The position numbers were made by a program, and so were the translations under genes. Below the pieces are notes generated by a model. The model made no database searches. It was not told the origin of the DNA and saw nothing but the letters and a program-made list of their open reading frames with translations. Of a DNA stretch of 64,000 bases, positions 6,001-60,741 are shown in pieces. This stretch comes from Eledone cirrhosa (taxonomy: Eukaryota): contig OZ024740.1 of NCBI GenBank assembly GCA_964016885.1, positions 7,874,001-7,938,000 of the forward strand, written 5' to 3'. The stretch's first letter is position 1, and every line of letters begins with the position of its first letter.

Positions 6001-9000
6001 TTGGTATATCAGTTTTGATTAGTATGTCAGTTTCTAATGGTATGTCAGTTTCGATTAGTATATCAGTTTCTATTGGTATGTCAGTTTCGATTGGTATGTC
6101 AGTTTCGATTGGTATATCAGTTTCGATTAGTATATCAGTTTCGATTGTTATATCAGTTTCGATTGGTATATCAGTTTCTATTGGTATATCAGTTTCTATT
6201 GGTATGTCAGTTTCGATTGCTGTGTCAGTTTCGATTGGTATGTCAATTTCAATTGGTATATCAGTTTTGATTAGTATGTCAGTTTCTATTGGTATGTCAG
6301 TTTCGATTGGTATATCAGTTTCGATTGGTATGTCAGTTTCGATTAGTATATCAGTTTCGATTGGTATGTCAGTTTCGATTGCTATATCAGTTTCGATTGG
6401 TATGTCAGTTTCGATTAGTATATCAGTTTCTATTGGTATATCAGTTTCTATTGGTATGTCAGTTTTGATTGGTATATCAGTTTCGATTAGTATGTCAGTT
6501 TCGATTGGTATGTCAGTTTCGATTGGTATATCAGTTTCGATAGGTATATCAGTTTCGATTGGTATATCAGTTTCTATTGGTATATCAGTTTCTATTGGTA
6601 TGTCAGTTTTGATTGGTATATCAGTTTCGATTAGTATGTCAGTTTCGATTGTTATGTCAGTTTCGATTGGTATATCAGTTTCGATAGGTATATCAGTTTC
6701 GATTGGTATATCAGTTTCTGTTGGATTGTCAGTTTCGATTGGTATGTCAGTTTCTATTGGAATGTCAGTTTCGATTGGAATGTCAGTTTCGATTGGTATA
6801 TCAGTTTCGATTAGTATATCAGTTTCGATTGTTATATCAGTTTCGATTGGTATGTCAGTTTCTATTGGTATATCAGTTTTGATTGGTATGTCAGTTTCTA
6901 TTGGTATGTCAGTTTCTATTGGTATGTCAGTTTCTATTGGTATGTCAGTTTCTGTTTTGATTGGTATATCAGTTTCGATTGGTATGTCAGTTTCTATTGG
7001 TATATCAGTTTCTATTGGTATGTCAGTTTCGATTGGTATGTCAGTTTCGATTGGTATGTCAATTTCGATTGGTATATCAGTTTCGATTAGTATGTCAGTT
7101 TCTATTGGTATGTCAGTTTCTATTGGTATATCTGTTTCGATTGGTATGTCAGTTTCCATTGGTAGATCAGTTACGATTGGCATGTTAGTTACTATTGGTA
7201 TATCAGTTTTGATTAGTATATCAGTTTCTACTGGTATGTAAGTTTCGATAGGTATGTTAGTCCTCGATTGGTATGTCAGTTTCGATTGTTATGTCAGTGT
7301 CGATTGGTATATCAGTTTCGATTGGTATGTCCGTTTGGATTGGTATGTCAGTTTCGATTGGTATGTCAGTTTTGATTGGTATATCAGTTTCCATTGGTAT
7401 ATCAGTTTCAATTAGTATGTCAGTTTCGATTGGTATATCAGTTTCGATTAGTATATAAGTTACTATTGGTATGTCAGTTTCGATTGGTATGTCAGATTCT
7501 ATTGGTATATCAGTTTCGATTTGTATTTCAGTTTCGATTGGTATATCAGTTTCTATTGCTATATCACTTTCTATTGGTATATCAGTTTTCGATTAGTATG
7601 TCAGTTTCGATTGGTATGTCAGTTTCGATTGGTATATCAGTTTTGATAGGTATATCAGTTTCGATTGGTATGTCAGTTTTGATTGGTATAACAGTTTCTA
7701 TTGCTATATCAGTTTCTGTTGGATTGTCATTTTCGATTGCTATGTCAGTTTCGATTGGTATGTCAGTTTCTATTGGTATATCAGTTTCGATTGATATATC
7801 AGTTTCGATTGGTATGTCAGTTTCGATTGGTATGTCAGTTTCTATTGGTATATCAGTTTCTATTGGTATGTCAGTTTCGATTGCTGTGTCAGTTTCGATT
7901 GGTATGTCAATTTCAATTGGTATATTAGTTTTGATTAGTATGTCAGTTTCTATTGGTATGTCAGTTTCGATTGGTATATCAGTTTCGATTGGTATGTCAG
8001 TTTCGATTAGTTTATCAGTTTCGATTGGTATGTCAGTTTCGATTGGTATATCAGTTTCGATTGGTATGTCAGTTTCGATTAGTATATCAGTTTCTATTGG
8101 TATATCAGTTTCTATTGGTATGTCAGTTTTGATTGGTATATCAGTTTCGATTAGTATGTCAGTTTCGATTGGTATGTCAGTTTCGATTGGTATATCAGTT
8201 TCGATAGGTATATCAGTTTCGATTGGTATATCAGTTTCTATTGGTATATCAGTTTCTATTGGTATGTCAGTTTTGATTGGTATATCAGTTTCGATTAGTA
8301 TGTCAGTTTCGATTGGTATGTCAGTTTCGATTGGTATATCAGTTTCGATAGGTATATCAGTTTCGATTGGTATATCAGTTTATGTTGGATTGTCAGTTTC
8401 GATTGGTATGTCAGTTTCTATTGGAATGTCAGTTTCGATTGGAATGTCAGTTTCGATTGGTATGTCAGTTTCTGTTGGTATATCAGTTTCGATTGATATA
8501 TCAGTTTCGATTAGTATGTCAGTTTCTAACGGTATGTCAGTTTCGATTAGTATATCAGTTTCTATTGGTATGTCAGTTTCGATTGGTATGTCAGTTTCGA
8601 TTGGTATATCAGTTTCGATTAGTATATCAGTTTCGATTGTTATATCAGTTACGATTGGTATGTCAGTTTCTATTGGTATATCAGTTTTGATTGGTATGTC
8701 AGTTTCTATTGGTATGTCAGTTTCTATTGGTATGTCAGTTTCTATTGGTATGTCAGTTTCTGTTTTGATTGGTATCTCAGATTCGATTGGTATGTCAGTT
8801 TCGATTGGTATGTCAGTTTCTATTCGTATATCAGTTTCTATTGGTATGACAGTTTCGATTGGTGTGTCAGTTTCGATTGGTATGTCAATTTCAATTGGTA
8901 TATCAGTTTTGATTAGTATGTCAGTTTCTAATGGTATGTCAGTTTCGATTAGTATATCAGTTTCTATTGGTATGTCAGTTTCGATTGGTATGTCAGTTTC

Positions 9001-12000
9001 GATTGGTATATCAGTTTCGATTAGTATATCAGTTTCGATTGTTATATCAGTTTCGATTGGTATGTCAGTTTCTATTGGTATATCAGTTTCTATTGGTATG
9101 TCAGTTTCGATTGCTGTGTCAGTTTCGATTGGTATGTCAATTTCAATTGGTATATCAGTTTTGATTAGTATGTCAGTTTCTAATGGTATGTCAGTTTCGA
9201 TTAGTATATCAGTTTCTATTGGTATGTCAGTTTCGATTGGTATGTCAGTTTCGATTGGTATATCAGTTTCGATTGGTATGTCAGTTTCGATTAGTATATC
9301 AGTTTCGATTGGTATGTCAGTTTCGATTGGTATATCAGTTTCGATTGGTATGTCAGTTTCGATTAGTATATCAGTTTCTATTGGTATATCAGTTTCTATT
9401 GGTATGTCAGTTTTGATTGGTATATCAGTTTCGATTAGTATGTCAGTTTCGCTTGGTATGTCAGTTTCGATTGGTATATCAGTTTCGATAGGTATATCAG
9501 TTTCGATTGGTATGTCAATTTCAATTGGTATATTAGTTTTGATTAGTATGTCAGTTTCTATTGGTATGTCAGTTTCGATTGGTATATCAGTTTCGATTGG
9601 TATGTCAGTTTCGATTAGTTTATCAGTTTCGATTGGTATGTCAGTTTCGATTGGTATATCAGTTTCGATTGGTATGTCAGTTTCGATTAGTATATCAGTT
9701 TCTATTGGTATATCAGTTTCTATTGGTATGTCAGTTTTGATTGGTATATCAGTTTCGATTAGTATGTCAGTTTCGATTGGTATGTCAGTTTCGATTGGTA
9801 TATCAGTTTCGATAGGTATATCAGTTTCGATTGGTATATCAGTTTCTATTGGTATATCAGTTTCTATTGGTATGTCAGTTTTGATTGGTATATCAGTTTC
9901 GATTAGTATGTCAGTTTCGATTGGTATGTCAGTTTCGATTGGTATATCAGTTTCGATAGGTATATCAGTTTCGATTGGTATATCAGTTTATGTTGGATTG
10001 TCAGTTTCGATTGGTATGTCAGTTTCTATTGGAATGTCAGTTTCGATTGGAATGTCAGTTTCGATTGGTATGTCAGTTTCTGTTGGTATATCAGTTTCGA
10101 TTGATATATCAGTTTCGATTAGTATGTCAGTTTCTAACGGTATGTCAGTTTCGATTAGTATATCAGTTTCTATTGGTATGTCAGTTTCGATTGGTATGTC
10201 AGTTTCGATTGGTATATCAGTTTCGATTAGTATATCAGTTTCGATTGTTATATCAGTTACGATTGGTATGTCAGTTTCTATTGGTATATCAGTTTTGATT
10301 GGTATGTCAGTTTCTATTGGTATGTCAGTTTCTATTGGTATGTCAGTTTCTATTGGTATGTCAGTTTCTGTTTTGATTGGTATCTCAGATTCGATTGGTA
10401 TGTCAGTTTCGATTGGTATGTCAGTTTCTATTCGTATATCAGTTTCTATTGGTATGACAGTTTCGATTGGTGTGTCAGTTTCGATTGGTATGTCAATTTC
10501 AATTGGTATATCAGTTTTGATTAGTATGTCAGTTTCTAATGGTATGTCAGTTTCGATTAGTATATCAGTTTCTATTGGTATGTCAGTTTCGATTGGTATG
10601 TCAGTTTCGATTGGTATATCAGTTTCGATTAGTATATCAGTTTCGATTGTTATATCAGTTTCGATTGGTATGTCAGTTTCTATTGGTATATCAGTTTCTA
10701 TTGGTATGTCAGTTTCGATTGCTGTGTCAGTTTCGATTGGTATGTCAATTTCAATTGGTATATCAGTTTTGATTAGTATGTCAGTTTCTAATGGTATGTC
10801 AGTTTCGATTAGTATATCAGTTTCTATTGGTATGTCAGTTTCGATTGGTATGTCAGTTTCGATTGGTATATCAGTTTCGATTGGTATGTCAGTTTCGATT
10901 AGTATATCAGTTTCGATTGGTATGTCAGTTTCGATTGGTATATCAGTTTCGATTGGTATGTCAGTCTCGATTAGTATATCAGTTTCTATTGGTATATCAG
11001 TTTCTATTGGTATGTCAGTTTTGATTGGTATATCAGTTTCGATTAGTATGTCAGTTTCGCTTGGTATGTCAGTTTCGATTGGTATATCAGTTTCGATAGG
11101 TATATCAGTTTCGATTGGTATATCAGTTTCTATTGGTATATCAGTTTCTATTGGTATGTCAGTTTTGATTGGTATATCAGTTTCGATTAGTATGTCAGTT
11201 TCGATTGGTATGTCAGTTTCGATTGGTATATCAGTTTCGATAGGTATATCAGTTTCGATTGGTATATCAGTTTCTGTTGGATTGTCAGTTTCGATTGGTA
11301 TGTCAGTTTCTATTGGAATGTCAGTTTCGATTGGAATGTCAGTTTCGATTGGTATATCAGTTTCGATTAGTATATCAGTTTCGATTGTTATATCAGTTAC
11401 GATTGGTATGTCAGTTTCTATTGGTATATCAGTTTTGATTGGTATGTCAGTTTCTATTGGTATGTCAGTTTCTATTGGTATGTCAGTTTCTATTGGTATG
11501 TCAGTTTCTGTTTTGATTGGTATATCAGTTTCGATTGGTATGTCAGTTTCTATTGGTATATCAGTTTCTATTGGTATGTCAGTTTCGATTGGTATGTCAG
11601 TTTCGATTGGTATGTCAATTTCGATTGGTATATCAGTTTCGATTAGTATGTCAGTTTCTATTGGTATGTCAGTTTCTATTGGTATATCTGTTTCGATTGG
11701 TATGTCAGTTTCCATTGGTAGATCAGTTACGATTGGCATGTTAGTTACTATTGGTATATCAGTTTTGATTAGTATATCAGTTTCTACTGGTATGTAAGTT
11801 TCGATAGGTATGTTAGTCCTCGATTGGTATGTCAGTTTCGATTGTTATGTCAGTGTCGATTGGTATATCAGTTTCGATTGGTATGTCCGTTTGGATTGGT
11901 ATGTCAGTTTCGATTGGTATGTCAGTTTTGATTGGTATATCAGTTTCCATTGGTATATCAGTTTCAATTAGTATGTCAGTTTCGATTGGTATATCAGTTT

Positions 12001-15000
12001 CGATTAGTATATAAGTTACTATTGGTATGTCAGTTTCGATTGGTATGTCAGATTCTATTGGTATATCAGTTTCGATTTGTATTTCAGTTTCGATTGGTAT
12101 ATCAGTTTCTATTGCTATATCACTTTCTATTGGTATATCAGTTTTCGATTAGTATGTCAGTTTCGATTGGTATGTCAGTTTCGATTGGTATATCAGTTTT
12201 GATAGGTATATCAGTTTCGATTGGTATGTCAGTTTTGATTGGTATAACAGTTTCTATTGCTATATCAGTTTCTGTTGGATTGTCATTTTCGATTGCTATG
12301 TCAGTTTCGATTGGTATGTCAGTTTCTATTGGTATATCAGTTTCGATTGATATATCAGTTTCGATTGGTATGTCAGTTTCGATTGGTATGTCAGTTTCTA
12401 TTGGTATATCAGTTTCTATTGGTATGTCAGTTTCGATTGCTGTGTCAGTTTCGATTGGTATGTCAATTTCAATTGGTATATTAGTTTTGATTAGTATGTC
12501 AGTTTCTATTGGTATGTCAGTTTCGATTGGTATATCAGTTTCGATTGGTATGTCAGTTTCGATTAGTATATCAGTTTCGATTGGTATGTCAGTTTCGATT
12601 GGTATATCAGTTTCGATTGGTATGTCAGTTTCGATTAGTATATCAGTTTCTATTGGTATATCAGTTTCTATTGGTATGTCAGTTTTGATTGGTATATCAG
12701 TTTCGATTAGTATGTCAGTTTCGATTGGTATGTCAGTTTCGATTGGTATATCAGTTTCGATAGGTATATCAGTTTCGATTGGTATATCAGTTTCTATTGG
12801 TATATCAGTTTCTATTGGTATGTCAGTTTTGATTGGTATATCAGTTTCGATTAGTATGTCAGTTTCGATTGGTATGTCAGTTTCGATTGGTATATCAGTT
12901 TCGATAGGTATATCAGTTTCGATTGGTATATCAGTTTCTGTTGGATTGTCAGTTTCGATTGGTATGTCAGTTTCTATTGGAATGTCAGTTTCGATTGGAA
13001 TGTCAGTTTCGATTGGTATATCAGTTTCGATTAGTATATCAGTTTCGATTGTTATATCAGTTACGATTGGTATGTCAGTTTCTATTGGTATATCAGTTTT
13101 GATTGGTATGTCAGTTTCTATTGGTATGTCAGTTTCTATTGGTATGTCAGTTTCTATTGGTATGTCAGTTTCTGTTTTGATTGGTATATCAGTTTCGATT
13201 GGTATGTCAGTTTCTATTGGTATATCAGTTTCTATCGGTATGTCAGTTTCGATTGGTATGTCAGTTTCGATTGGTATGTCAATTTCGATTGGTATATCAG
13301 TTTCGATTAGTATGTCAGTTTCTATTGGTATGTCAGTTTCTATTGGTATATCTGTTTCGATTGGTATGTCAGTTTCCATTGGTAGATCAGTTACGATTGG
13401 CATGTTAGTTACTATTGGTATATCAGTTTTGATTAGTATATCAGTTTCTACTGGTATGTAAGTTTCGATAGGTATGTTAGTCCTCGATTGGTATGTCAGT
13501 TTCGATTGTTATGTCAGTGTCGATTGGTATATCAGTTTCGATTGGTATGTCCGTTTGGATTGGTATGTCAGTTTCGATTGGTATGTCAGTTTTGATTGCT
13601 ATATCAGTTTCCATTGGTATATCAGTTTCAATTAGTATGTCAGTTTCGATTGGTATATCAGTTTCGATTAGTATATAAGTTACTATTGGTATGTCAGTTT
13701 CGATTGGTATGTCAGATTCTATTGGTATATCAGTTTCGATTTGTATTTCAGTTTCGATTGGTATATCAGTTTCTATTGCTATATCACTTTCTATTGGTAT
13801 ATCAGTTTTCGATTAGTATGTCAGTTTCGATTGGTATGTCAGTTTCGATTGGTATATCAGTTTTGATAGGTATATCAGTTTCGATTGGTATGTCAGTTTT
13901 GATTGGTATAACAGTTTCTATTGCTATATCAGTTTCTGTTGGATTGTCATTTTCGATTGCTATGTCAGTTTCGATTGGTATGTCAGTTTCTATTGGTATA
14001 TCAGTTTCGATTGATATATCAGTTTCGATTGCTATGTCAGTTTCGATTGGTATGTCAGTTTCTATTGGTATATCAGTTTCTATTGGTATGTCAGTTTCGA
14101 TTGGTGTGTCAGTTTCGATTGGTATGTCAATTTCAATTGGTATATCAGTTTTGATTAGTATGTCAGTTTCTAATGGTATGTCAGTTTCGATTAGTATATC
14201 AGTTTCTATTGGTATGTCAGTTTTGATAGGTATGTTATTCCTCGATTTGTATGTCTGTTTCTATTGGTATGTCAGTTTCGATTGGTATGTCAGTTTCTAT
14301 TGGTATATCAGTTTCGAATGGTATGTCTGTTTCGATTAGTATATCAGTTTCTATAAGTATATCAGTTTCAATTGTTATGTCAGTTTCTATTGGTATATCA
14401 GTTTCTATTGGTATGTCAGTTTCGATTGGTATGTCAGTTTCGATTGGTATGTCAATTTCGATTGGTATATCAGTTTCGATTAGTATGTCAGTTTCTATTG
14501 GTATATCTGTTTCGATTGGTAGGTCAGTTTCTATTGGTAGATCAGTTACGATTGGCATGTTATATACTATTGGTATATCAGTTTTGATTAGTATATCAGT
14601 TTCTATTGGTATGTAAGTTTCGATAGGTATGTTAGGCCTCGATTGGTATGTCAGTTTCGATTGTTATGTCAGTGTCGATTGGTATATCAGTTTCGATTGG
14701 TATGTCAGTTTGGATTGGTATGTCAGTTTGGATTGGTATGTCAGTTTCGATTGGTATATCAGTTTCCATTGGTATATCAGTTTCAATTAGTATGTCAGTT
14801 TCGATTGGTATGTCAGTTTCGATTAGTATATCAGTTTCTATTGGTATGTCAGTTTGGATTGGTATATCAGTTTCGATTAGTATGTCAGTTTCGATTGGTA
14901 TGTCTGTTTCGATTGGTATATCAGTTTTGATAGGTATATCAGTTTCGATTGGTATGTCAGTTTTGATTGGTATAACAGTTTCTAATGCTATATCAGTTTC

Positions 15001-15021
15001 TGTTGGATTGTCAGTTTCGAT
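1..15021 (+). repeat. 18-bp tandem satellite array (block 1), consensus TCAGTTTC[G/T]ATTGGTAT[G/A], with near-identical higher-order repeats
   Basis: Continuous 18-bp periodicity. Variant strings recur at offsets of 1440 (1 vs 1441), 3182 (4194 vs 7376), 1608 (8367 vs 9975), 4556 (7376 vs 11932) and 1664 (11932 vs 13596). Confidence 0.98.
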
Positions 15022-16989
15022 GCTAGAGATGCCTACTGACTATAGTAGGTTTTTACATTGTATTTAGGTAAGGCGGGTCTTCTCTATTACTGAGTACCGC
15101 CAAAGGTCTCGGTCCAGTGACATTGTCTTGGAGAGGTGTAAGTGTGTGAGGTCGGAGTTTATCAGCTCGTCCCAAGTTTTTCTAGGTCTGCCTATTCCGT
15201 GGCTACCGTCTATCTTTATTGCCCTGCACTTTGTTATACAGCTATCATCCTTCATGCGCATCACGTGACCATACCAATGTAGCCTTCTCTCTAGTAAACA
15301 ATATCTGATCCCTCTTATTTCTAATTTTTTCCTTAGTTCGTTTATGCTTTGTCGTTCACGTATATTACTATTACACATCCAGCGGAGCATGCAAGCTTCG
15401 TTTCTCTCTAGTGTGCGTATATCCTCTGCACACAATGCCCAGGTCTCACTGCCATGCAACATTGCTGTTCGTATGCAGGCATCGTACAGCCTGCCTTTCA
15501 TTTTTAGGGAGAACCCTTTAGCGGCTAATAGTGGTATAAGCTCTCTGAACTTTTTCCACCCAGTTCTGACTCTAGCTACTGTACTTTCAGAGCACCCTCC
15601 CCCACTGCTGATTTTGTCACCCAGGTAACGGAAGCTGTCCACTATTTCTATAGAACCCTCTGCGCAGTTGAAAGAGCTAGTATTTTTGTGGGCACTTGCT
15701 GCTACTTATATCCCTAGAACACCGGCCACATGTAAAATCTATGTTCTTAGTTAGCTTACCTGTGATCCCACTACATCTTTTATGCACCCAAACTTTGCAT
15801 TTGGGACACAAAATGGAATTTCTACCTACGCCTTTCCTACACTCTGCGCATGGCCACTTCCCGGAGGGGACCGCCGCCTTATTTTCTTTCTTACAAACTA
15901 GAACTTTAGTCTTAGCCAGGTTAATTTTAAGGCCTTTTGATTCTAGGCCATGCTTCCATGTTTGGAATTTCTTCTCTAGCTCGGCCATTGATTCAGCTAT
16001 GAGCGTTAGATCATCTGCGTATAGGAGTTCCCATGGGCAGTCGGTCTTGAACTCCACTGTTATAGCCTGGAGGGCAATAATAAATAGTAGGGGGCTAAGA
16101 ACAGAGCCCTGATGAACACCAACGTTTACACTAAACTCTTCACTATATTCGTTGTTAATTCTAACCTTGCTAACTGTTTCTTTATACATGGCTTGTATAG
16201 CTCTCACAAGCCCTTCATCAACACCTAGTTTTCTAAGAGCCCACCAGATAATGGAACGGGGGACTCTGTCGAAGGCCTTCTCCAAGTCGACGAAAGCTAA
16301 GTATAGGGGTTTACTTTTAGCTAGCTACTTCTCCTGTAGTTGTCGTACAATGAAAAGAGCGTCTGTGGTACTTTTTCCTGACACAAACCCGAACTGCATT
16401 TCATCTAGATCAATTCGCTCTCTGATTAGTTGCGCTATAACTTTTTCCGTGACCTTCATGACCTGGTCGATTAATTTAATGCCTCTATAGTTACTCCTAT
16501 CTAGGGCATCTCCTTTACCCTTATAACAGTTAACGATAATGCTGCTGCGCCAGTCCTTCGGAACAACCCCATTCTGTATGACTTGGTTGACTATCCGGGT
16601 GACCATGGTGTGTCCCACCGTACCAGATGCCTTCAGCATCTCGGCAACTATTTCCGAAGGCCCAGCCGCCTTGCCTGTCTTCATATCTTTGATTGCCTTA
16701 CTTATTATACTACCCTCGACTAACACTGCTGGTCCCTCTATTGGGTCGATGTGGGGGAGACTGTCTTTCTCCCATTTATTCTCCTCATTTAGTAAGCTTT
16801 CGTAGTGACACTTCCAAGCTACCGTCTTATCGGCATCGGTGATGGCAAGTATGCCGTCATCGTTAAGTACACACTTCTCCCCGACAATATCACGGTTTTC
16901 CTTGACACATTGCCTGGCAATCCTGAACACCTCACGTTTTTGGTCATCGCATTGTAGAACATGCTTGAACTTTCATTCCTCTGCTTCCC
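15022..16989 (-). pseudogene. RTE-clade LINE subfamily A, 5'-truncated and cut within the 3' UTR; decayed RT ORF
   Basis: ORF pieces 16325-16930, 15677-16285 and 15064-15642 align to the 24817-27792 protein (QGSVLSP, YADD, PHD, RRLHWYGHVMRM). Nonsense codon at 16325 (TAC>TAG) and +1 A frameshift near 15683-15687. Ends at AGGCATCTCTAGC without a tail. Confidence 0.95.
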
Positions 16990-19734
16990 TGACATACCTA
17001 TCGAAACTGACATACCAATCGAATCTGACATACCAATAGAAACTGATATACTAATCGAAACTGACACACCATTAGAAACTGACATACTAATCGAAACTGA
17101 TATATCAATCGAAACTAATATACCAATAGAAACTGACATACCAATCGAAACTGACATACCAATCGAAACTGATATACTAATCGAAACTGACATACCATTA
17201 GAAACTGACATACTAATCGAAACTGATATATCAATCGAAACTGATATACCAATCGAAACTGATATACCAATAGAAATTGACATACCAATCGAAACTGACA
17301 TACCAATCGAAACTGATATACCAATCAAAACTGATATACCAATAGAAACTAACATACCAATAGAAACTGACATACCAATAGAAACTGACATACCAATCGG
17401 AACTGATATACCAATCGAAACTGACATACCAATCGAAACTGACATACTAATCGAAACTGATATAACAATCAAAACTGACATACCAATAGAAACTGATATA
17501 CCAATAGAAACTGATATACTAATCGAAACTGACACACCAATCGAAACTGATATACCAATCGAAACTGACATACCAATCGAAACTGATATACCAATCGAAA
17601 CTGACATACCAATAGAAACTGAGATACCAATGGTAACTGATATACTAATCAAAGCTGACTTACCAATAGAAACTAACATACCAATTGAAACTGATATACA
17701 AATAGAAACTGACATACCAATAGAAACTGATATACCAATAGAAACTGACATAACAATTGAAACTGATATACATATAGAAACTGATATACTAATCGAAACA
17801 GACATACCATTTGAAACTGATATACCAATAGAAACTGACATACCAATCGAAACTGACATACCAATAGAAACTGATATACTAATCGAAACTGATATACCAA
17901 TAGTAACTAACATACCAATCGTAACTGATATACCAATCGAAATTGACATACCAATCGAAACTGACACACCAATCGAAACTGACATACCAATAGAAACTGA
18001 TATACCAATAGAAACTGACATACCAATCGAAACTGATATAACAATCGAAACTGATATACTAATCGAAACTGATATACCAATCGAAACTGACATACCAATC
18101 GAAACTGACATACCAATAGAAACTGATATATTAATCGAAACTGACATACCATTAGAAACTGACATACTAATCGAAACTGATATATCAATCGAAACTGATA
18201 TACCAATTGAAACTGATATACCAATCGAAACTGACATACAAATCGAAACTGACAATCCAACAGAAACTGATATAGCAATAGAAACTGTTATACCAATCAA
18301 AACTGACATACCAATCGAAACTGATATACCTATCGAAACTGATATACCAATCGAAACTGACATACCAATAGAAACTGACATACTAATCGAAACTGATATA
18401 CCAATCCAAACTGACATACCAATAGAAACTGATATAGCAATAGAAACTGATATACCAATCGAAACTGATATACCAATCAAAACTGATATACCAATAGAAT
18501 CTGACATACCAATCGAAACTGACATACCAATAGAAACTGATATACTAATCGCAACTGACATACCAATGGAAACTGATATACCAATCGAAACTGACATACC
18601 AATCAAAACTGACATACCAATCCAAACTGACATACCAATCAAAACTGATATACCAATCGACACTGACATAACAATCGAAACTGACATACCAATCGAGGAC
18701 TAACATACCTATAGAAACTTACATACCAATAGAAACTGATATACTAATCGAAACTGATATACCAATAGTAACTAACATGCCAATCGTAACTGATCTACCA
18801 AGAGAAACTGTCATACCAATCGAAACAGATATACCAATCGAAACTGATATACCAATAGAAACTGACATACTAATCGAAACTGATATACCAATCGAAATTG
18901 ACATACCAATCGAAACTGACATACCAATCGAAACTGACATACCAATAGAAACTGATATCCCAATAGAAACTGACATACCAATAGAAACTGATATACCAAT
19001 CGAAACTGATATACCAATAGAAACTGACATACCAATCGAAACTGACATACCAATCGAAACTGATATACCAATCAAAACTGATATACCAATAGAAACTGAC
19101 ATACCAATAGAAACTGACATACCAATAGAAACTGACATACCAATCGAAACTGATATACCAATCGAAACTGATATACCAATAGAAACTGACATACCAATCG
19201 AAACTGATATAAAAATCGAAACTGATATACTAATCGAAACTGATATACCAATCGAAACTGACATACCAATCGAAACTGACATACCAATAGAAACTGATAT
19301 ACTAATCGAAACTGACATACCATTAGAAACTGACATACTAATCGAAACTGATATATCAATCGAAACTGATATACCAATAGAAATTGACATGCCAATCGAA
19401 ACTGACATTCCAATCGAAACTGACATACCAATAGTAACTGATATAATAATCGAAACTGACATACCAATAGAAACTGACATACCAATCGAAACTGATATAC
19501 CAATAGAAACTGACATACCAATCGAAACTGATTATCCAACAGAAACTGATATATACCAATCGAAACTGATATACCAATCGAAACTGACATACCAATAGAA
19601 ACTGAAATACTAATCCAAACTGATATAACAATCAAAACTGACATACAAATAGAAACTGTTATAGCAATAGAAACTGACATACCAATAGAAACTGACATAC
19701 CAATAGAAGCTGATATACCAATAGAAACTGACAT
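16990..19734 (-). repeat. Same 18-bp satellite in inverted orientation
   Basis: Plus strand reads GAAACTGA[C/T]ATACCAAT[C/A] throughout. Confidence 0.98.
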
Positions 19735-20062
19735 CATCATCATCATCATCATCAACGTTTAACGTCCGTGTTCCATGCTTGCATGGGTTTGGACGGGGGT
19801 AGTCCCACTTGAGGCAAGAGTGATTTTCTTGCTCGCATAGGACTGTCTGGCAGGTTTTCTACAGTTGGATGCCCTTCCTAACACCAACCACATTTACAGT
19901 GTGGGTCTGGGAGGTTTTTACCGTGTTGCCTACACGGCCACATTACAGCGTGGACTGTGTGTTTTTTTGTCGTGACGCCTACACGATCTCATTTGTTTCG
20001 GCCTGGATGTTGTGGGACCAACATAACTTTACATTGGAAGGGGCGGTGGGGATGGGGTGGTG
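19732..20062 (-). mobile_element. RTE subfamily A distal 3' UTR plus (GAT)n tail
   Basis: Reverse complement of the 3' UTR seen at about 27855-28190 and 60765-61100; (CAT)n at 19732-19753. Confidence 0.95.
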
Positions 20063-20499
20063 ATTGGTATATCAGTTTCGATTAGTATGTCAGTTTCTAT
20101 TGGTATATCAGTTTCGATGGGTATGTCAGTTTCGATTGGTATGTGAGTTTCTATTGGTATATCAGTTTCGATGGGTATGTCAGTTTCTATTGGTATGTCA
20201 GATTCGATTGATATATCAGTTTCGATTAGTATGTCAGTTTCTATTGGTATGTCAGTTTCGATTGGTATGTCAGTTTCTATTGGTATATCAGTTTCGAATG
20301 GTATGTCAGTTTCTATTGGTATATCAGTTTCTATTGGTATGTCTGTTTCGATTAGTATATCAGTTTCTATAAGTATATCAGTTTCAATTGTTATGTCAGT
20401 TTCTATTGGTATATCAGTTTCTATTGGTATGTCAGTTTCGATTTGTATATCAGTTACAATTGGTATGTTAGTTTCTATTGGTAAGTCAGCTTCGATTAG
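20063..20499 (+). repeat. 18-bp satellite
   Basis: 18-bp periodicity; variant order matches about 33445-33843. Confidence 0.97.
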
Positions 20500-22515
20500 G
20501 TAGATGAAGCAGTCAAGGCCAAGAGACAGGCATGGAAAGAATGGAAGAACGGGGGGAGCAGGGTACATTACATAGCTAAGAGGGAAGCAGAGGATAGAAA
20601 ATTCAAGCATGTTTTACAACGTGAGGACCAGAAACAGGAGGTATTCAAGATTGCGAGGCAGTGTGTCAGAGATAGTTGTGATGTCATTGGAGAGAAGTGT
20701 ATCCGGAATGATAAAGGTGAGCTTGCCCTCACAAGTGCTGAGAAGAAAGATGCATGGAAGAGTCATTATGATAGATTACTAAATGAGGAGAATGCATGGG
20801 AAGAAGAGACCCTACCCCACGTAGACCCTATAGAGGGACCAGCAGTACAAGTCAGCGGCAGCGTAGTAAGTAAGGCAATCAGAGATATGAAGATAGGGAA
20901 GGCAACCGGTCCATCGGGTATAGCTGCCGAGATGCTGAAGGCATCTGGGTCTGTAGGTCACACTATAACCACACGTATCGTTAACCAGGTAATACTAGAG
21001 GGGGCCATACCAAAAGATTGGTGCAGTAGCATCATTGTCAACTGCTACAAAGGTAAAGGCGATGCACTAGATAGAGGAAACTATAGAGGTATAAAGTTGA
21101 TGGACCAGGTCATGAAAGTAACAGAAAGAGTTATAGCACAGCTGATTAGGGACCGGGTGAATATAGACGAGATGCAATTTGGGTTTGTACCAGGGAAAGG
21201 CACCACTGATGCCCTCTTCCTTGTGAGGCAATTACAGGAAAAGTACCTAGTTAAAAGTAAGCCACTCTACTTGGCATTTGTCGACCTTGAGAAAGCCTTT
21301 GACAGAGTTCCACGTGCAGTAATCTGGTGGGCTCTTAGAAAACTAGGAGTAGATGAATGGCTTGTGAAAGCGGTACAAGCCATGTATAGGGGAGCAGTCA
21401 GCAAAGTTAGGATTGGCAATGAGTATAGCGAGGAATTTAGCGTACAGGTTGGGGTCCACCAGGGCTCTGTTCTTAGCCCTCTCCTGTTCATCATAGTCCT
21501 GCAGGCAATAACGGAGGAGTTTAAGACCGGATGCCCATGGGAACTCCTGTATGCTGATGACCTCGCACTCATAGCTGAATCTATGGTAGAACTAGAGAAT
21601 AAATTCCAAACCTGGAAGCAGGGACTAGAGAGAAAGGGCCTCAAAGTCAACATGACAAAGACTAAGGTCCTTGTAAGTAGACGAGAAAACAGAAGCCAGA
21701 TCCCCTCAGGGAAATGGCCTTGCTCAGTATGTAGGAAAGGTGTAGGTAGGAACTCCATTCTCTGCCCCAAATGCAAACAATGGGTACACAAGAGATGTAG
21801 CGGGATCTCAGGAAGCTTAATTAAGAATGTAGGATTCACATGCAGCAGCTGTGCTGAAACAGCAAGCAGCAAACAGCCACAGGAAACAAGTACCACCAAT
21901 CTCTGGGAGGGCCCTGTAGAAACAGTAGACAGCTTCTGCTACCTAGGTGACCGAATTAGCAACGGAGGTGGGTGCTCAGAAAGTACAATAACTAGGGTAA
22001 GAACGGGATGGAAGAAGTTTAGGGAACTACTACCACTGCTAGCTGCAAAAGGCTTCTCCCTCAGAATGAAAGGCAGACTGTATGATGCGTGTATCCGAAC
22101 AGCGATGTTGCATGGTAGTGAGACCTGGGCGCTGAAGGTGGAAGACTTACGTAGATTAGAGAGAAACGAAGCCTGCATGCTCCGATGGATGTGTAACAGT
22201 AATATACGTGAACGACAAAGCATAAAGGAATTGAGAGAGAGACTGAGCATAAGAGGAATCAAATGCTGCGTGCAGGAGAGGCGGTTACGCTGGTATGGAC
22301 ATGTGATGCGTATGAAGGATGACAGCTGCATAAAAAGGTGCAGAGCACTAGAAGTTGATGGAAACCGCGGAGTGGGGAGACCCAAGATGACTTGGGATGA
22401 GGTGATAAAAGCCGACCTTACCCAACTAGACCTCTCAAAGTCAATGACACACGACCGTGACTTCTGGCGTCACGCAGTAATACAGGGTACCCGACCTCCC
22501 ATGGGTACATGCTGA
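20500..22515 (+). CDS. Partial RTE-B ORF: reverse transcriptase with embedded PHD finger (no endonuclease)
   Basis: Frame is open from the junction at 20500 through track ORF 20887-22515. Motifs NYRGIKL, AFVDLEKAFD, QGSVLSP, LYADD, YLG, RRLRWYGHVMRM, GRPKMTW. Confidence 0.9.
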   Translation, partial: VDEAVKAKRQAWKEWKNGGSRVHYIAKREAEDRKFKHVLQREDQKQEVFKIARQCVRDSCDVIGEKCIRNDKGELALTSAEKKDAWKSHYDRLLNEENAWEEETLPHVDPIEGPAVQVSGSVVSKAIRDMKIGKATGPSGIAAEMLKASGSVGHTITTRIVNQVILEGAIPKDWCSSIIVNCYKGKGDALDRGNYRGIKLMDQVMKVTERVIAQLIRDRVNIDEMQFGFVPGKGTTDALFLVRQLQEKYLVKSKPLYLAFVDLEKAFDRVPRAVIWWALRKLGVDEWLVKAVQAMYRGAVSKVRIGNEYSEEFSVQVGVHQGSVLSPLLFIIVLQAITEEFKTGCPWELLYADDLALIAESMVELENKFQTWKQGLERKGLKVNMTKTKVLVSRRENRSQIPSGKWPCSVCRKGVGRNSILCPKCKQWVHKRCSGISGSLIKNVGFTCSSCAETASSKQPQETSTTNLWEGPVETVDSFCYLGDRISNGGGCSESTITRVRTGWKKFRELLPLLAAKGFSLRMKGRLYDACIRTAMLHGSETWALKVEDLRRLERNEACMLRWMCNSNIRERQSIKELRERLSIRGIKCCVQERRLRWYGHVMRMKDDSCIKRCRALEVDGNRGVGRPKMTWDEVIKADLTQLDLSKSMTHDRDFWRHAVIQGTRPPMGTC

Positions 22516-22820
22516 AGCATATAAACAATATGCCCCCCCCCCCCCACCGCAAGGTGGCCGTGGAGGTGCCACGGCAAAAAAGCACCCAGCCCACACTGTA
22601 AAGTGGACGTGTAGGCGCCACGAAAAAGCACCCAGCACTCACTGTAAATGAGGTTGGTGTTAGGAAGGGCATCCAGCTGTAGAAATCAAGCCAGATCAGT
22701 TCCTGTATGAGCAAGGCATGGTCAGCCGACCAGACACTGCCCACAACAGGACAACCCGTCTAACCCATGCTAGCGTGGAAGAACGGACGTAAAACGGTGA
22801 TGATGATGATGATGATGATG
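20500..22820 (+). mobile_element. RTE-clade LINE subfamily B, 5'-truncated, with complete 3' UTR and (GAT)n tail
   Basis: RT ORF, 3' UTR 22516-22797 sharing the GGTTGGTGTTAGGAAGGGCATCCA block with subfamily A, and a (TGA)n tail to 22820. Confidence 0.96.
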
Positions 22821-24051: not shown

Positions 24052-24093
<42 letters not shown>

Positions 24094-24622: not shown

Positions 24623-27600
24623 ATGCCAAAGATAAAGACAAATTCACCTCTTGGACGAGAATGCGAGCACTCCTCACTGTTTCGACCGCGGACGGCTAAC
24701 ATAACCCCATCGCCCCCCGCCCCCCACCGCCCCAACCCCCAAACGCAATCCAAAACTTCAGAGTTGGTACCATAAATGTAGGCACCCTAAAGGGTCGCGC
24801 TAACGAGGTTGTAGAAATGCTTGAACATAAGGAGGTCGATGTTTGTTGTATTCAAGAGACCAGGTGGAGGGGTGGGTCTGCTAGGTTCATTGAGGGTAAA
24901 AAACGATGTTATAAGCTTTTCTGGGTGGGAAACGACGATGGGCTGGGTGGAGTAGGAATCATGGTAGCAGAAAAGTGGGCAGATAAGATAATAGACGTAA
25001 ATAGAGTGAACGACAGAATAATTAAAATACGACTTGTCCTCAATAGAACTACGGTGACAGTAATATCTGCGTACGCACCCCAATCCGGACTGCCCGGCAC
25101 TATAAAAGACAGATTCTATGAGACACTGATGCTAACTACCTCCCAAATATCCGACAGTGACTATATAATTATCGCAGGCGACCTAAATGGTCACGTTGGA
25201 CAACATTGTGACGGCTACGACGAAATCCATGGAGGCTATGGGTTTGGTACTAGAAATGAGGAAGGCTCCAGAATCCTGGAATTCTGTGATGCAAATAACC
25301 TAACTATCTGTAACACTAACTTCAAAAAACGTGACAATCACCTGATCACCTATAGATCCGGGGAACACACAAGCCAGGTAGATTATATCCTTACCAGAAG
25401 ACGTGACAGAGTGTCTGTTGTAAACACTAAATCCCTCCCCCATGAAGAATGCACCTCCCAACATAGACTGATAATTAGCGACCTCATAGTCAGGACGAGA
25501 CGTACTCGACAGCAGAAGAGGACTATCCTCAGGAGAAAAATATGGAAGCTAAAGGACCCCACAGCCAGGAATAAATTTCAAAGCATATTACTTGATGCTT
25601 TCGACAGTAAGGAAGAACATTTAGAGTCGGACAATATAGAGGGAGAGTGGGAATTTCTGAAAGCAAACCTGCTGTTGGCGACAGACGAAGTCTGTGGCTG
25701 GAGCAGGCCTGTAGGCAGGAGGAGAGTAACATGGTGGTGGAACAGTAAGGTGGAGGGGTCAATTAAGGCCAAAAAGCAGGCTTGGAAAGTATGGCGGGAT
25801 GGGGGAAGTAGAGAGGACTATCAAGTGGCCAGGAGGGAAGCCAGGAGACAAGTGTACTTAGCAAGAAGGGAAGCTGAGGAAAGAAAGTTCAAGCATGTTC
25901 TACAACGCGATGACCAAAAACGTGAGGTGTTCAGGATTGCTAGGCAATGCGTCAAGGAAAACCGTGATATTGTCGGGGAGAAGTGTGTACTAAACGACGA
26001 TGGCACACTTGCCATCACCGACGCTGATAAGAAGGTAGCTTGGAAGTGTCACTATGAAAGGCTACTAAATGAGGAGAATAATTGGGAGAAAGGCAGTCTC
26101 CCCCATATCGACCCAATAGAGGGACCAGCAGTGTTAGTCGAGGGGAGTATAATAAGTAAGGCAATCAAGGATATGAAGACGGGTAAGGCGGCTGGGCCTT
26201 CGGAAATAGTTGCTGAGATGCTGAAGGCATCTGGCACGGTGGGACACACCATGGTCACCCGCATAGTTAACCAAGTCGTACAGAATGGGGTTGTTCCGAA
26301 GGACTGGCATAGCAGCATCATCGTTAACTGTTATAAGGGTAAAGGAGACGCCCTAGATAGGAGTAACTATAGAGGCATTAAAGTAATCGACCAGGTCATG
26401 AAGGTCACGGAAAAAGTAATAGCGCAACTAATCAGAGAGAGAATTGACCTAGATGAAATGCAGTTCGGGTTTGTGTCAGGCAAAAGTACCACAGACGCTC
26501 TTTTCATAGTACGACAACTACAGGAGAAGTACCTAGCTAAAGGTAAACCCCTCTACTTAGCTTTTGTCGACTTGGAGAAAGCCTTCGACAGAGTCCCCCG
26601 CTCCATTATCTGGTGGGCTCTTAGAAAACTAGGCGTTGACGAATGGCTTGTGAGGGCTATACAAGCCATGTATAAAGAAACAGTCAGCAAGGTTAGAATT
26701 AACAACGAATATAGTGAAGAGTTTAGCGTAAAAGTTGGCGTCCATCAGGGCTCTGTTCTCAGCCCACTACTATTTATTATTGCCCTTCAGGCTATAACAG
26801 AGGAGTTCAAGACAGGCTGCCCATGGGAACTCCTATACGCAGACGACCTGACACTCATAGCGGAATCAATGGCCGAGCTAGAGAAGAAATTCCAAACATG
26901 GAAGCACGGCCTAGAGTCAAAAGGACTTAAAATTAACCTGGCTAAGACCAAAGTACTAGTTTGTAGGAAAGAAAACAAGGCGGCGGTCCCTTCTGGGAAA
27001 TGGTCGTGCTCGGTGTGTAGGAAAGGCGTAGGTAGAAACTCCATTTTATGTCCTAAATGCAAAGTATGGGTGCATAAAAGATGTGGTGGGATCACAGGTA
27101 AGCTAACTAAGAACATAGATTTTACATGTGGCCGGTGCTCTGGTGCAATAAGTAGCAGCAAGTGCCCACAAACTACTAGCTCTTTCAATTGCGCAGAGGG
27201 TTCTATAGAAATAGTGGACAGCTTCCGTTACCTGGGCGATAAAATCAGCAGTGGGGGAGGGTGCTCTGAAAGTACTGTAGCTAGAGTCAGAACTGGTTGG
27301 AAAAAGTTCAGAGAGCTTATACCACTATTAGCTGCTAAAGGGTTCTCACTAAAAATGAAAGGCAGGTTGTACGATGCCTGCATACGAACAGCAATGCTGC
27401 ATGGCAGTGAGACCTGGGCATTGTGTGCAGAGGATATACGCAGACTAGAGAGGAACGAAGCTTGCATGCTCCGCTGGATGTGTAACAGTAATATACGTGA
27501 ACGGCAAAGCATAAACGAACTAAGGAAAAAATTAGAGATAAGAGGGATCAGATGTTGTTTACTCGAGAGAAGGCTACGTTGGTATGGACACGTGATGCGC

Positions 27601-27792
27601 ATGAAAGTCGATAGCTGTATAACAAAGTGCAGGGCAATAAAGATAGACGGTAGTCACGGAATAGGCAGACCTAGAAAAACCTGGGACGAGCTGATAAACT
27701 CCGACATCACACACTTACACCTCTCCAAGACAATGTCACTGGACCGAGACCTTTGGCGGTACTCAGTAACAGAGAAGACCCGCCTTACCTAA
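24623..27792 (+). CDS. RTE-A polyprotein: AP endonuclease, RT, PHD finger; one -1 frameshift near 24736-24740 (uninterrupted part 24817-27792, 991 aa)
   Basis: APE motifs GTINV, CIQET, SAYAPQ, AGDLNGHVG, SQVDYIL, SQHRL; RT motifs DLEKAFD, QGSVLSP, YADD, YLG. The N-terminus MPKIKTNSPLGRECEH aligns in frame with the 57.6-kb copy. Confidence 0.9.
27007..27138 (+). other. C4HC3 PHD-type zinc finger coding segment inside the RT
   Basis: CSVC-x10-CPKC-x4-H-x2-C-x14-CGRC; all eight ligands are conserved in all five RT copies. Confidence 0.85.
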
Positions 27793-28190
27793 ATATATAG
27801 TAAAACCTACTCCAGCCAGTAGGCATCTCTAACAAAATACACCCCGTCCCACCACCACCACCCCCACCCGATCCACACCACCCCGTTCTATGTAAAGTTA
27901 TGCTGGTGCCGCGCCATCGAGGCCGAAACAAATGAGATCGTGTAGGTGTCACGACAAAAAAACACACAGTCCACGCTGTAATGTGGCCGTGTAGGCAACA
28001 CGGTAAAAACCTCCCAGACCCACACTGTAAATGTGGTTGGTGTTAGGAAGGGCATCCAACTGTAGAAAACCTGCCAGACAGTCCTATGCGAGCAAGACAA
28101 TCACTCTTGCCTCAAGTGGGACTACCCCCGTCCAAACCCATGCAAGCGTGGAACACGGACGTTAAACGTTGATGATGATGATGATGATGA

Positions 28191-28989: not shown

Positions 28990-28990
<1 letters not shown>

Positions 28991-31438: not shown

Positions 31439-31548
31439 GTGTATATATATGTATATATATATATATATATCTATATATATATATATATATATATATCTAT
31501 ACATATATATCTATATATATATCTATATATATATATATATATATATAT
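31401..31548 (+). repeat. (TA)n microsatellite, imperfect
   Basis: Read directly from the sequence. Confidence 0.95.
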
Positions 31549-32244
31549 GGACCGAGACCTTTGGCGGTACTCAGTAATAGAGAAGACCCGCCTTACCTAA
31601 ATACAAAGTAAAACCTACTACAGCCAGTAGGCATCTCTAACAAAATACACCCCCGTCCCCCCACCCCATCCACACCACCCCTTCAATGTAAAGTTATGTT
31701 GGTGCCACAACATCCAGGCCGAAACAAATGAGATCGTGTAGACACAGTCCACGCTGTAATGTGGAAGGGCATCCAGCTGTAGAAAACCTGCCAGACAGTC
31801 CACGCTGTAATGTGGTCGTGTAGGTAACACGGTAAAAACCTCCCAGCCCCACACTGTAAATGTGGTTGGTGTTAGGAAGGGCATCCAGCTGTAGAAAACC
31901 TGCCAGACAGTCCACGCTGTAATGTGGCCGTGTAGGTAACACGGTAAAAACCTCCCAGCCCCACACTGTAAATGTGGTTGGTGTTAGGAAGGGCATCCAG
32001 CTGTAGAAAACCTGCCAGACAGTCCACGCTGTAATGTGGCCGTGTAGGTAACACGGTAAAAACCTCCCAGCCCCACACTGTAAATGTGGTTGGTGTTAGG
32101 AAGGGCATCCAGCTGTAGAAAACCTGCTAGACAGTCCTATGCGAGCAAGACAATCACTCTTGCCTCAAGTGGGAAAACCCCCGTCCAAACCCATGCAAGC
32201 GTGGAACACGGACGTTAAACGATGTTGATGATGATGATGATGAT
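31548..32244 (+). mobile_element. RTE subfamily A 3'-terminal fragment with an amplified 3' UTR segment and (GAT)n tail
   Basis: Starts TGGACCGAGACCTTTGGCGG (equivalent to 27740); tail 32221-32244. Confidence 0.95.
31744..32137 (+). repeat. 112-bp tandem repeat (3 full copies plus one internally deleted copy) within the RTE-A 3' UTR
   Basis: ACAGTCC at 31744, 31795, 31907, 32019 and 32131. Confidence 0.95.
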
Positions 32245-60500: not shown

Positions 60501-60741
60501 CGAGAGAAGGCTACGTTGGTATGGACACGTGATGCGCATGAAAGTCGATAGCTGTATAACAAAGTGCAGGGCAATAAAGATAGACGGTAGCCACGGAATA
60601 GGCAGACCTAGAAAGACCTGGGATGAGCTGATAAACTCCGACCTCACACACTTACACCTCTCCAAGACAATGTCACTGGACCGAGACCTTTGGCGGTACT
60701 CAGTAACAGAGAAGACCCGCCTTGCCAGTAGGCATCTCTAA
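57571..60741 (+). CDS. Uninterrupted RTE-A APE-RT-PHD ORF (1056 aa from the satellite-derived ATG at 57571; first element-encoded ATG at 57628)
   Basis: Track ORF 57517-60741; APE and RT motifs present including YADD; a 28-bp deletion removes the normal stop and gives the C-terminus RLASRHL. Confidence 0.92.
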   Translation: MSNSPRGRECEHSSLFRPRMANITPSPPAPHQPHPPNAIQNFRVGTINVGTLNGRANDVVEMLERKEVDVCCIQETRWRGGSARFIEGKKRCYKLFWVGNDDGLGGVGIMVAEKWADKIIDVNRVNDRIIKIRLVLNRTTVTVISAYAPQSGLPGTIKDRFYETLMLTTSQISDSDYIIIAGDLNGHVGQHCDGYDEIHGGYGFGTRNEEGSRILEFCDANNLTICNTNFKKRDNHLITYRSGEHTSQVDYILTRRRDRVSVVNTKSLPHEECTSQHRLIISDLIVRTRRTRQQKRTILRRKIWKLKDPTARNKFQSILLDAFDSKEEHLESDNIEGEWEFLKANLLLATDEVCGWSRPVGRRRVTWWWNSKVEGSIKAKKQAWKVWRDGGSREDYQVARREARRQVYLARREAEERKFKHVLQRDDQKREVFRIARQCVKENRDIVGEKCVLNDDGTLAITDADKKVAWKCHYERLLNEENKWEKDSLPHVDPIEGPAVLVEGSIISKAIKDMKTGKAAGPSEIVAEMLKASGTVGHTMVTCIVNQVVQNGVVPKDWHSSIIVNCYKGKGDALDRSNYRGIKVIDQVMKVTEKVIAQLIRERIDLDEMQFGFVSGKSTTDALFIVRQLQEKFLAKGKPLYLAFVDLEKAFDRVPRSIIWWALRKLGVDEWLVRAIQAMYKETVSKVRINNEYSEEFSVKVGVHQGSVLSPLLFIIALHAITEKFKTGCPWEHLYADDLTLIAESMAELEKKFQTWKHGLESKGLKINLAKTKVLVCRKENKAAVPSGKWSCSLCRKGVGRNSILCPKCKVWVHKRCSGITGKLTKNIDFTCGRCSGAISSSKCPQNTSSFNCAEGSIEIVDSFRYLGDKISSGGGCSESTVARVRTGWKKFRELIPLLAAKGFSLKMKGRLYDACIRTAMLHGSETWALCAEDIRRLERNEACMLRWMCNSNIRERQSINELRKKLEIRGIRCCLLERRLRWYGHVMRMKVDSCITKCRAIKIDGSHGIGRPRKTWDELINSDLTHLHLSKTMSLDRDLWRYSVTEKTRLASRHL

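Follow-up and report, generated by a model that had tools for sequence, protein, structure and literature searches.

A LINE split in its 3′ UTR and the satellite beside it, apparently inverted in place, in Eledone cirrhosa

Described inversions and permuted insertions

Among the closest described systems are the breaks made by the human L1 element, which in the reported cases led to inversions either at the reciprocal end or at the end of primary reverse transcription, one of them an inversion of 3,275 bp that contained genomic DNA together with the insert (bioRxiv 10.1101/2024.12.14.628481). The locus described here lies in a window of 64,000 nucleotides, the whole stretch that we analyzed (assembly GCA_964016885.1, contig OZ024740.1). 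It resembles these L1 ORF2p-induced local inversions in having kilobase-scale inverted genomic DNA beside an insertion, a breakpoint a few base pairs from the nick, scant homology at one junction and an inverted piece that may include genomic DNA and insert (bioRxiv 10.1101/2024.12.14.628481). The L1 cases in that source are human and somatic, with one end inverted per case, whereas here a LINE with a single endonuclease-reverse transcriptase-PHD (EN-RT-PHD) frame sits in satellite DNA, is split in its 3′ UTR and has both halves inverted.

Duplications through circular intermediates, as those sources present them, share with this locus a permuted order, a short indel at the opening point and 1–4 bp of microhomology at the outer junctions; they draw on a distant, separate donor, whereas the present event appears copy-neutral, with donor and recipient the same (PMC7188851; PMC7450558). 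Inversions of a spacer between inverted repeats offer a further likeness, as both ends of the distal 3′ UTR piece adjoin inverted arms. The micro- and spacer inversions described there span 17–33 bp and need pre-existing repeats, whereas here the arms would be a product of the event (PMC8755829).

The element itself is like the RTE-clade LINEs, described as having one frame of ∼1030–1075 codons with endonuclease and reverse transcriptase (RT) in ∼3.5 kb, in frame size, domains and length; it differs in carrying a PHD finger after the RT, where the RTE-2_OV description gives a C2H2 finger (PMC9115989; PMC10294476). No LINE split with both halves inverted in satellite was found in the literature searched, to the extent of the texts available, which is not proof of absence.

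Layout of the block and its element

The features of the locus, in window positions, are as follows.

1..15021, plus strand: left flank (L), an 18-bp satellite array with higher-order repeat structure (TRF, 831 copies; monomer map)
15017..15025, no strand: junction J1, the end of L joined tail-to-tail with the proximal 3′ UTR, ambiguous by 1–4 bp
15022..16989, minus strand: B, 5′-truncated LINE body (RT, PHD) with proximal 3′ UTR (BLASTN, 93.8–93.9% identity to full-length copies; Pfam RVT_1, PHD)
16990..19734, minus strand: S, inverted satellite of 2.74 kb, which would originally have lain directly upstream of the element
17165..18180, minus strand: portion of S nearly identical to L 643–1658 (1 mismatch in 1016 bp)
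19723..19753, minus strand: J2, where the (TGA)n tail meets the 6-bp target word ATGTCA and, beyond it, satellite other than the original downstream flank
19732..20062, minus strand: D, distal 3′ UTR and (TGA)n tail of the same element as B (95–96% identity to full-length copies)
20035..20062, plus strand: G-rich tract holding the UTR break (C-rich on the element strand)
20062/20063: J3, joined head-to-head with satellite
20063..20502, plus strand: right flank (F), placed by its match to 33443–33685 on what was originally the downstream side of the insertion
20500..22820, plus strand: insertion of a second family inside F, 76% identical; second positive control of the register test
24639..28190, plus strand: full-length reference copy with intact 3′ UTR
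31548..32244, plus strand: 3′ fragment, the nearest match to B and D in the vicinity of the UTR break
33272..33685, plus strand: uninterrupted paralog of the insertion site, with the S end and F start 6 bp apart (33437–33442)
57577..61097, plus strand: full-length copy with 6-bp target duplication and a 1035-aa EN-RT-PHD frame; positive control of the register test

BLASTN identities bear out the original prediction that the block reads, on the minus strand, distal UTR and tail (20062–19732), 2.74 kb of satellite, then body (16989–15022). S is the sole minus-strand satellite among the six arrays of the window. The blocks are circularly permuted in order and point the same way, as in a circular-intermediate duplication. 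The block's outer flanks hold no element remnants, as had been noted before, and a simple inversion between two RTEs is excluded. No unpermuted donor copy is present within the window.

Single frames of 1030 and 1035 aa, with endonuclease (PF03372/PF14529) and RT (PF00078) domains by Pfam, occur in elements of ∼3.2–3.6 kb, and this architecture, with the earlier label, suggests an RTE-clade LINE. B is a dead copy, with stops near 16975 and 16325 and a frameshift near 15683–15716. The TAG at 16325, proposed earlier as distinctive, is indeed private to this copy (the other letter makes up 99.8% of depth in run X6), and B has at least 10 private substitutions. Its ∼6% distance from the full-length copies is concentrated at third positions (76 of 100 differences) and in synonymous codons (71, vs 23 non-synonymous), and so reflects subfamily divergence rather than age. 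Near the UTR break, D agrees with the 31548 copy at five of six informative sites and B at all three of its own. B and D are pieces of one insertion, as predicted. The element family is extremely abundant in the sequencing runs, where loose ends at 15051 continue as intact UTR.

The two ends of the block are, as first proposed, neighbors in the intact UTR: intact copies have 46–58 bp between two anchor motifs and the block retains 30 bp, giving a loss of 16–28 bp. The break sits in the strongest G-quadruplex-type tract of the element's 3′ part, whose G4Hunter score in intact copies, −2.2 to −2.6, is the strongest outside the 5′ end. Junction homology amounts to 1–4 bp at J1 and 1 bp at J3. ATGTCA lies at both natural junctions (16990–16995 and 19729–19734) in a register identical to that of the 57.6-kb insertion, in agreement with the original prediction, although the word occurs in about half of all monomers and is by itself weak evidence as a target-site-duplication-like overlap. 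The element's 5′ join (16989/16990) likewise has the register of the full-length 57577–61097 copy.

Twin priming inverts the 5′ part of a LINE against the upstream flank, while the tail stays on the downstream flank. The present element is similarly split with a small loss at the internal point, but B is still joined to S in sense, and the tail no longer adjoins F. Twin priming was rejected on this wrong orientation of B and tail.

Satellite register of the flanks

The higher-order marker pattern of the satellite indicates where each flank belongs. The last 165 bp of S match 33272–33436 with 2 mismatches, and the first 243 bp of F match 33443–33685 with 2, the next best match having 18. In a 5 × 5 matrix of array ends and starts, continuation from S end to F start scores 45.6 bits, beside 55.7 bits for the flanks of the 57577–61097 copy and 40.0 bits for those of the 20500–22820 insertion, the two positive controls; the remaining 22 of 25 pairs reach at most 17.8 bits. 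In exact register the S end and F start score 65.6 bits, a value that 3 of 2361 null sites also reach (26 of 2361 when three monomers of slack are allowed), and the S-F register is collinear across 131 monomers, spanning both jumps, with 21 mismatches. The earlier statement that the outer flanks are nearly in phase holds at the level of the 18-bp monomer, where they overlap by 1–3 bp, but fails in the higher-order pattern: L end and F start do not continue each other (−9.9 bits). Nor does the satellite past the tail, the S start, continue the S end (−12.9 bits). The pattern also does not show continuity between L end and S start (−13.1 bits); a deletion may thus be concealed at the third break.

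The same site locates one breakpoint. F begins 5–6 bp past the insertion nick, which places the inversion breakpoint within a few base pairs of it. In four of five paralogs of the site the nick is followed, in register, by ATTTCG, a word found in 32 of 2625 monomers; the fifth has it one monomer earlier. After the tail of our element, ATGTCA is followed by GTTTCT instead of ATTTCG, so the tail side retains only the 6-bp target word.

F belongs downstream of the site where the element originally inserted, so donor and recipient coincide. The marker pattern thus shows an original order of L, S, [B, D, tail] and F, all in satellite sense, and a present order of L, inverted (S B), inverted (D tail) and F: as read from the sequence, two adjacent pieces were inverted in place, S with B (4.7 kb) and D with the tail (0.34 kb). 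The event appears copy-neutral, with fewer than 30 bp lost at the two measurable breaks.

These results overturn the proposal that the flanks are the two sides of a plain recipient site, and with it the proposal that an extrachromosomal circle (eccDNA) was reinserted at a new place. We consider it highly improbable that a circle excised elsewhere, or leaving its donor behind, was reinserted inverted into plain satellite: the permutation and the few bases lost where the circle would have opened do match the circular-intermediate signature as described, but that class is defined there by a separate, non-tandem donor (PMC7188851; PMC7450558). Moreover, F is the flank that lay downstream of the donor itself, the outer flanks do not belong to a single site, and the S start does not continue the S end, as it should after simple excision of a circle with a target duplication. 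The match of S end and F refutes this origin unless it arose by chance (3 of 2361). The alternative first offered, that a linear stretch lying between two tandem elements at another locus was copied here, would yield the order D-S-B but is scarcely credible, as it explains neither F's continuation of the S end to within 6 bp nor the meeting of both ends within 16–28 bp in the UTR. Any circle could only have been short-lived and local, returning inverted to its own gap, which is equivalent in sequence terms to two adjacent in-place inversions. The in-place reading predicts that no unpermuted donor with the same SNPs exists in this haplotype.

D abuts inverted satellite arms that are 81–89% complementary and share, where the stem begins, a perfect core of 13 bp. 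A two-step history, in which a 4.7-kb inversion between satellite and UTR was followed by a flip of the spacer D through exchange in these arms, would follow the known spacer inversions (as described in PMC8755829) and account for the 1–3 bp phase overlap of the outer flanks. We hold it to be very unlikely, because exchange in the core predicts ATTTCG after the tail, where GTTTCT is seen, and because the exchange would have to lie in the very first monomer, although the stem extends for at least 440 bp.

How the two pieces may have been inverted

The best explanation, to which we give even odds, is that both chromosome ends were remodeled while the element was inserting itself by target-primed reverse transcription. 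Its endonuclease would open the ATGTCA site, first-strand cDNA would run from the tail through D and then B, and the upstream target end would join the 5′ part of the cDNA. Second-strand synthesis would stall at the cDNA's G-rich tract, where the intermediate would break, leaving two untethered chromosome ends, each with half an element, to fold back and religate inverted. D would be religated onto the downstream target end, which loses 5–6 bp, and S with B onto L, and the two new ends would be joined in phase via the 6-bp ATGTCA. This reading is favored by the L1 inversions described above, the break at the nick, the UTR break in the strongest G4Hunter tract and the register of the 5′ join, and by the S end and F start belonging to one site, 6 bp apart. 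It is weakened by the 1–4 bp of homology at J1 for a 4.7-kb fold-back, by the feeble pairing of tail and G-rich tract (−5.3 kcal/mol, with 38 of 2227 windows equally good) and by the L1 precedent, in which, as reported, one end is inverted per insertion and not both. Two further weaknesses are that the marker pattern does not show L end running on into S start, and that S and L agree at 1015 of 1016 bp while B has accumulated its private substitutions.

That shared sequence places S in L's array. The longest inverted exact matches of the window, 782 and 233 bp, lie in it, and exact direct repeats within L reach 1469 bp. S and L appear to have exchanged sequence long after the insertion (P about 4e-4 had there been no later exchange); were the inversion to date from the insertion, the exchange would have been between inverted copies. 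The tail-side half of S is ∼2–4% diverged from the L end, and earlier units align equally well or better. This half is thus no recent copy, and an inverted duplication of the L end by template switching was rejected. A large flip via the 1-kb inverted match (643–1658/17165–18180) was also set aside, as it leaves the S-end/F register unexplained.

The near identity of S and L 643–1658 is most simply explained by a recent direct orientation. This favors concerted repair long after a normal insertion, in which a break in the G-rich UTR tract, or three clustered breaks, led to inversion of both pieces in place. We regard such later repair as fairly unlikely. It also covers a local circle in which S-B-D closed in satellite phase, opened in the UTR and was reinserted inverted; its sequence outcome is identical, and the in-phase J2 would suit annealing of satellite ends. 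However, one break must then fall ∼6–12 bp from the old nick, by chance or through the weak tail/G-tract pairing.

Alternatively, the retrotransposon itself may have closed a LINE-satellite ring that was reinserted inverted into its own gap, a route we judge unlikely. Reverse transcription would start from a satellite target lying 2.74 kb upstream, and the endonuclease would cut a second time, at the downstream site; this cut would capture the other end of the cDNA, which would bridge both ends of the excised satellite piece; the resulting ring would break at the G-rich UTR tract and be religated inverted. The non-site satellite right after the tail fits this ring as well as it fits end remodeling.

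An assembly or library artifact, due to chimeric reads or to misassembly across near-identical satellite, is quite unlikely. The array does hold exact repeats longer than 1 kb, and nothing for or against J1 appeared among the 15 joints (of 196) and 24 loose ends (of 2818) listed, in runs unlikely to show a private junction: the check covered 4 of 14 runs, mapped to 14985–17030 only, from low-share or RAD libraries of other animals (the best word share among the 14 runs was 0.67–0.70, in one sample; small-share runs X3–X5 were left out). Nevertheless, the sequences that meet at J1 and at J3 are unrelated and joined at base resolution, the two junctions are reciprocal to within 30 bp, and an artifact would require three coordinated joins.

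Implications for LINEs and satellite arrays

The product is functionless, a dead LINE inside an inverted satellite patch, and as a single locus with no coding or regulatory product it is of modest interest. It cautions that a textbook circular-permutation signature can arise in place, with no donor elsewhere, and indicates that higher-order satellite markers suffice to separate in-place from donor-derived permutation using one sequence. If the inversion was coupled to insertion, L1-type end-remodeling inversions would extend from human somatic cells to another type of LINE, in probably inherited DNA and with both ends inverted, and would offer a route for inverted patches into satellite arrays, where they make long inverted repeats. 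Should the ring version be true, LINE-driven inversion and circularization of satellite pieces in the germline could be recurrent, since satellites present an identical target word every 18 bp.

Satellite arrays and LINE copies in the window

Most of the window is an 18-bp satellite, arranged in six arrays with LINE copies between them.

Satellite arrays of the window
1-15021, satellite array (left array, L)
16989-19734, minus strand, satellite array, the sole minus-strand array of the six (inverted satellite, S)
20062-20502, satellite array (right flank, F)
22818-23790, satellite array
32246-57576, satellite array
61101-63997, satellite array

The full-length LINE copies (24639-28190 and 57577-61097) carry an endonuclease, a reverse transcriptase (RT) and a PHD finger in one frame, with open frames of 1030-1035 codons at 24700-27789 and 57634-60738 and the finger just after the RT domain. 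By architecture these copies would be RTE-like. The usual RTE length is 3.2-3.6 kb in the excerpted PMC10294476, and the RTE elements in the excerpted PMC9115989 are alike in architecture but differ from the window copies, with their PHD finger, in finger type. A fragment at 31548 carries 3.3 repeats, at 99% identity, of a 112-bp 3' UTR unit of the element (31763-32137). Copies of a second family (20500-22820 and 29905-31400) are 98.9% identical, and at the former about one target monomer was lost, not duplicated. A non-satellite island (23791-24520, 28199-29021 and 29395-29830) includes (ACT)n- and (GAA)n-type arrays, an A run containing a short local duplication and, by eye, an element of ~250 bp whose terminal inverted repeats are long; one stretch of the island is presumably SINE-like.

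Structure of the inverted block and continuity of its flanks

Read on the minus strand, the block runs from distal 3' UTR and tail (D, 20062-19732) through S (19734-16990) to LINE body and proximal 3' UTR (B, 16989-15022), the order originally predicted. As was also proposed, its two ends adjoin each other in the intact UTR, with 16-28 bp missing between them, and each natural junction carries ATGTCA in the same register as at the 57.6-kb insertion. Identity to the full-length copies is 93.8-93.9% for B and 95-96% for D; for B this distance is subfamily divergence. At informative sites beside the UTR break, B (3/3) and D (5/6) side with the 31548 fragment against both full-length copies, as would be expected of a single element. 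Farther towards the 3' end, D resembles the full-length copies more, with 2 private differences versus 8 for the 31548 fragment (207 columns), so that support for B and D as pieces of a single insertion is moderate. At both satellite insertions of the family (16990-17001, minus strand, and 57565-57576), the 5' junction comes straight after TAGGTA, a rare variant carried by 70 of 2625 monomers; it is present in the paralog of the 57.6-kb site and absent from that of the block's site. A target preference is possible, from two cases noted post hoc.

Rare monomer variants in higher-order order served as markers for which array end runs into which array start. Just ahead of the element's 5' end, the terminal 165 bp of S differ from 33272-33436 at 2 positions; the opening 243 bp of F likewise show 2 mismatches to 33443-33685, where the runner-up has 18. 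These two matched stretches, 6 bp apart, belong to one uninterrupted paralog. F placed after the end of S scores 65.6 bits in exact register, a value reached by 3 of 2361 satellite positions (26 with three monomers of slack), with 14 of 2361 reaching 25 bits. An alignment of 131 monomers, containing 21 mismatches and 16 monomer gaps, places the half of S on the B side, F and the following array along 32246-34820.

In a matrix of five array ends against five array starts, three pairs are outliers: the flanks of the 57.6-kb (55.7) and 20.5-kb (40.0) insertions, which were the positive controls, and the end of S with the start of F (45.6). The remaining 22 pairs score 17.8 or less. This matrix gave no continuity between the end of L and the start of F (-9.9), the end and start of S (-12.9), or the end of L and the start of S (-13.1). 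The outer flanks, described in the original prediction as plain plus-strand satellite nearly in phase, are thus in phase only modulo 18 bp, and in higher-order register F instead continues the end of S. By these markers, F is the side lying downstream of the site where the element itself inserted. S (17165-18180) also has a 1016-bp inverted match with one mismatch to L (643-1658), 15.5 kb apart, which ties S to this array and is a substrate for a larger flip.

Originally the pieces stood as L, S, B, D, tail, F. They now run L, (S B) inverted, (D tail) inverted, F, with two adjacent pieces each flipped in place. As a string, two neighbouring in-place inversions are identical to a circularly permuted inverted block; the flanks decide between the two descriptions, and by them donor and recipient coincide. 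Re-integration of an eccDNA at a new site, as first proposed, is not supported, since F continues the end of S, and the alternative then offered, a segment copied from between two tandem elements, fails on the same evidence.

Breakpoints and proposed origin

Three breaks are required for the present order. The UTR break falls within a tract ~60 bp wide that, apart from the element's 5' end, has the strongest G4Hunter score (-2.2 to -2.6 across three copies); the G-rich strand of this tract is the first-strand cDNA. The second break lies 2.74 kb upstream of the element, in satellite. No close paralog of the start of S exists within the window (best 15 bits) and, as this start also shows no continuity with L, a deletion at this break is possible. 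This start comprises the first eight monomers after the tail (19590-19734, minus strand); almost all the rest of the block has a close paralog. The third break is at the insertion nick itself. ATTTCG, found in 32 of 2625 monomers, directly follows the nick position in four of five site paralogs and lies one monomer earlier in the fifth; in the block, ATGTCA and then GTTTCT come after the tail, and from F the 5-6 bp at this place have been lost. At a control insertion, the monomer after the tail is identical to its paralog. The markers place the ends of both products within the dozen bases set by two endonuclease nicks, as end remodelling during target-primed reverse transcription predicts.

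Such remodelling is in our judgement the likeliest origin of both inversions, at about even odds; the topology is observed, and the timing and steps are what we infer. Second-strand synthesis would stall at the G tract, the stalled intermediate would break, both chromosome ends would be religated in inverted orientation, and the new ends would be joined via ATGTCA. Against this origin, homology at the left junction of the block (15021/15022) is 1-4 bp only, and tail/G-tract pairing on the same strand is weak (-5.3 kcal/mol, equalled by 38 of 2227 windows). In the excerpted text of bioRxiv 10.1101/2024.12.14.628481, human L1 local inversions occur on the reciprocal end or the primary RT end, carry target-duplication-like overlaps and in one case span 3,275 bp with genomic DNA and insert inside; closer cases to the block may be among that paper's figures or supplements. 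It is distinctly unlikely that the cDNA bridged two endonuclease cuts 2.74 kb apart, forming a ring that went back, inverted, into its own gap. A two-step route, first an ordinary inversion and then a flip of D between the inverted satellite arms so created, has a precedent in the excerpted PMC8755829; the arms are 81-89% complementary, with a perfect 13-bp core. This route predicts ATTTCG after the tail, where other hexamers stand, and is highly improbable.

Later exchange, assembly and significance

Between S and L 643-1658, a single base in 1016 differs against about 10 expected (P about 4e-4), although private substitutions in B number at least 10 (other letter at ≥99% of depth in run X6 for 10 of the 40 rows listed, of 246), which argues that sequence moved between S and L well after insertion. 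Such exchange is simplest in direct orientation, and would then make the inversion late, favouring concerted repair at a later time, one form of which is a circle closing and returning to its own gap. Ectopic conversion is not bound to orientation, and we consider later repair unlikely. L 643-1658 lies in a 1440-bp tandem duplication (1-613 = 1441-2053). Exact direct repeats in the left array reach 1469, 1208 and 1168 bp, while the 32-57 kb array has none longer than 516 bp, and reflect either very recent homogenisation or assembly expansion.

An assembly artefact is very unlikely, as chimeric reads would hardly give three coordinated, base-sharp, nearly reciprocal joins. Of the 14 runs listed, one RAD library and three contig sets from a single sample (word share 0.67-0.70) were compared with 14985-17030, the junctions at 19734 and 20062/20063 lying outside this stretch. 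There the family is very abundant; its other copies carry on across the UTR and beyond the truncation point, and the 15021/15022 junction was absent among the rows listed (15 of 196 joints and 24 of 2818 loose ends).

Precedents exist both for local inversions where LINEs insert and for circular-permutation signatures; the titles and excerpts searched hold no LINE split with both halves inverted in satellite. The variant in this window consists of a satellite-embedded LINE broken within its 3' UTR, with both halves inverted and the event readable via higher-order markers. The two full-length copies, with their open frames, are 97.8% identical, and the family may therefore be active.
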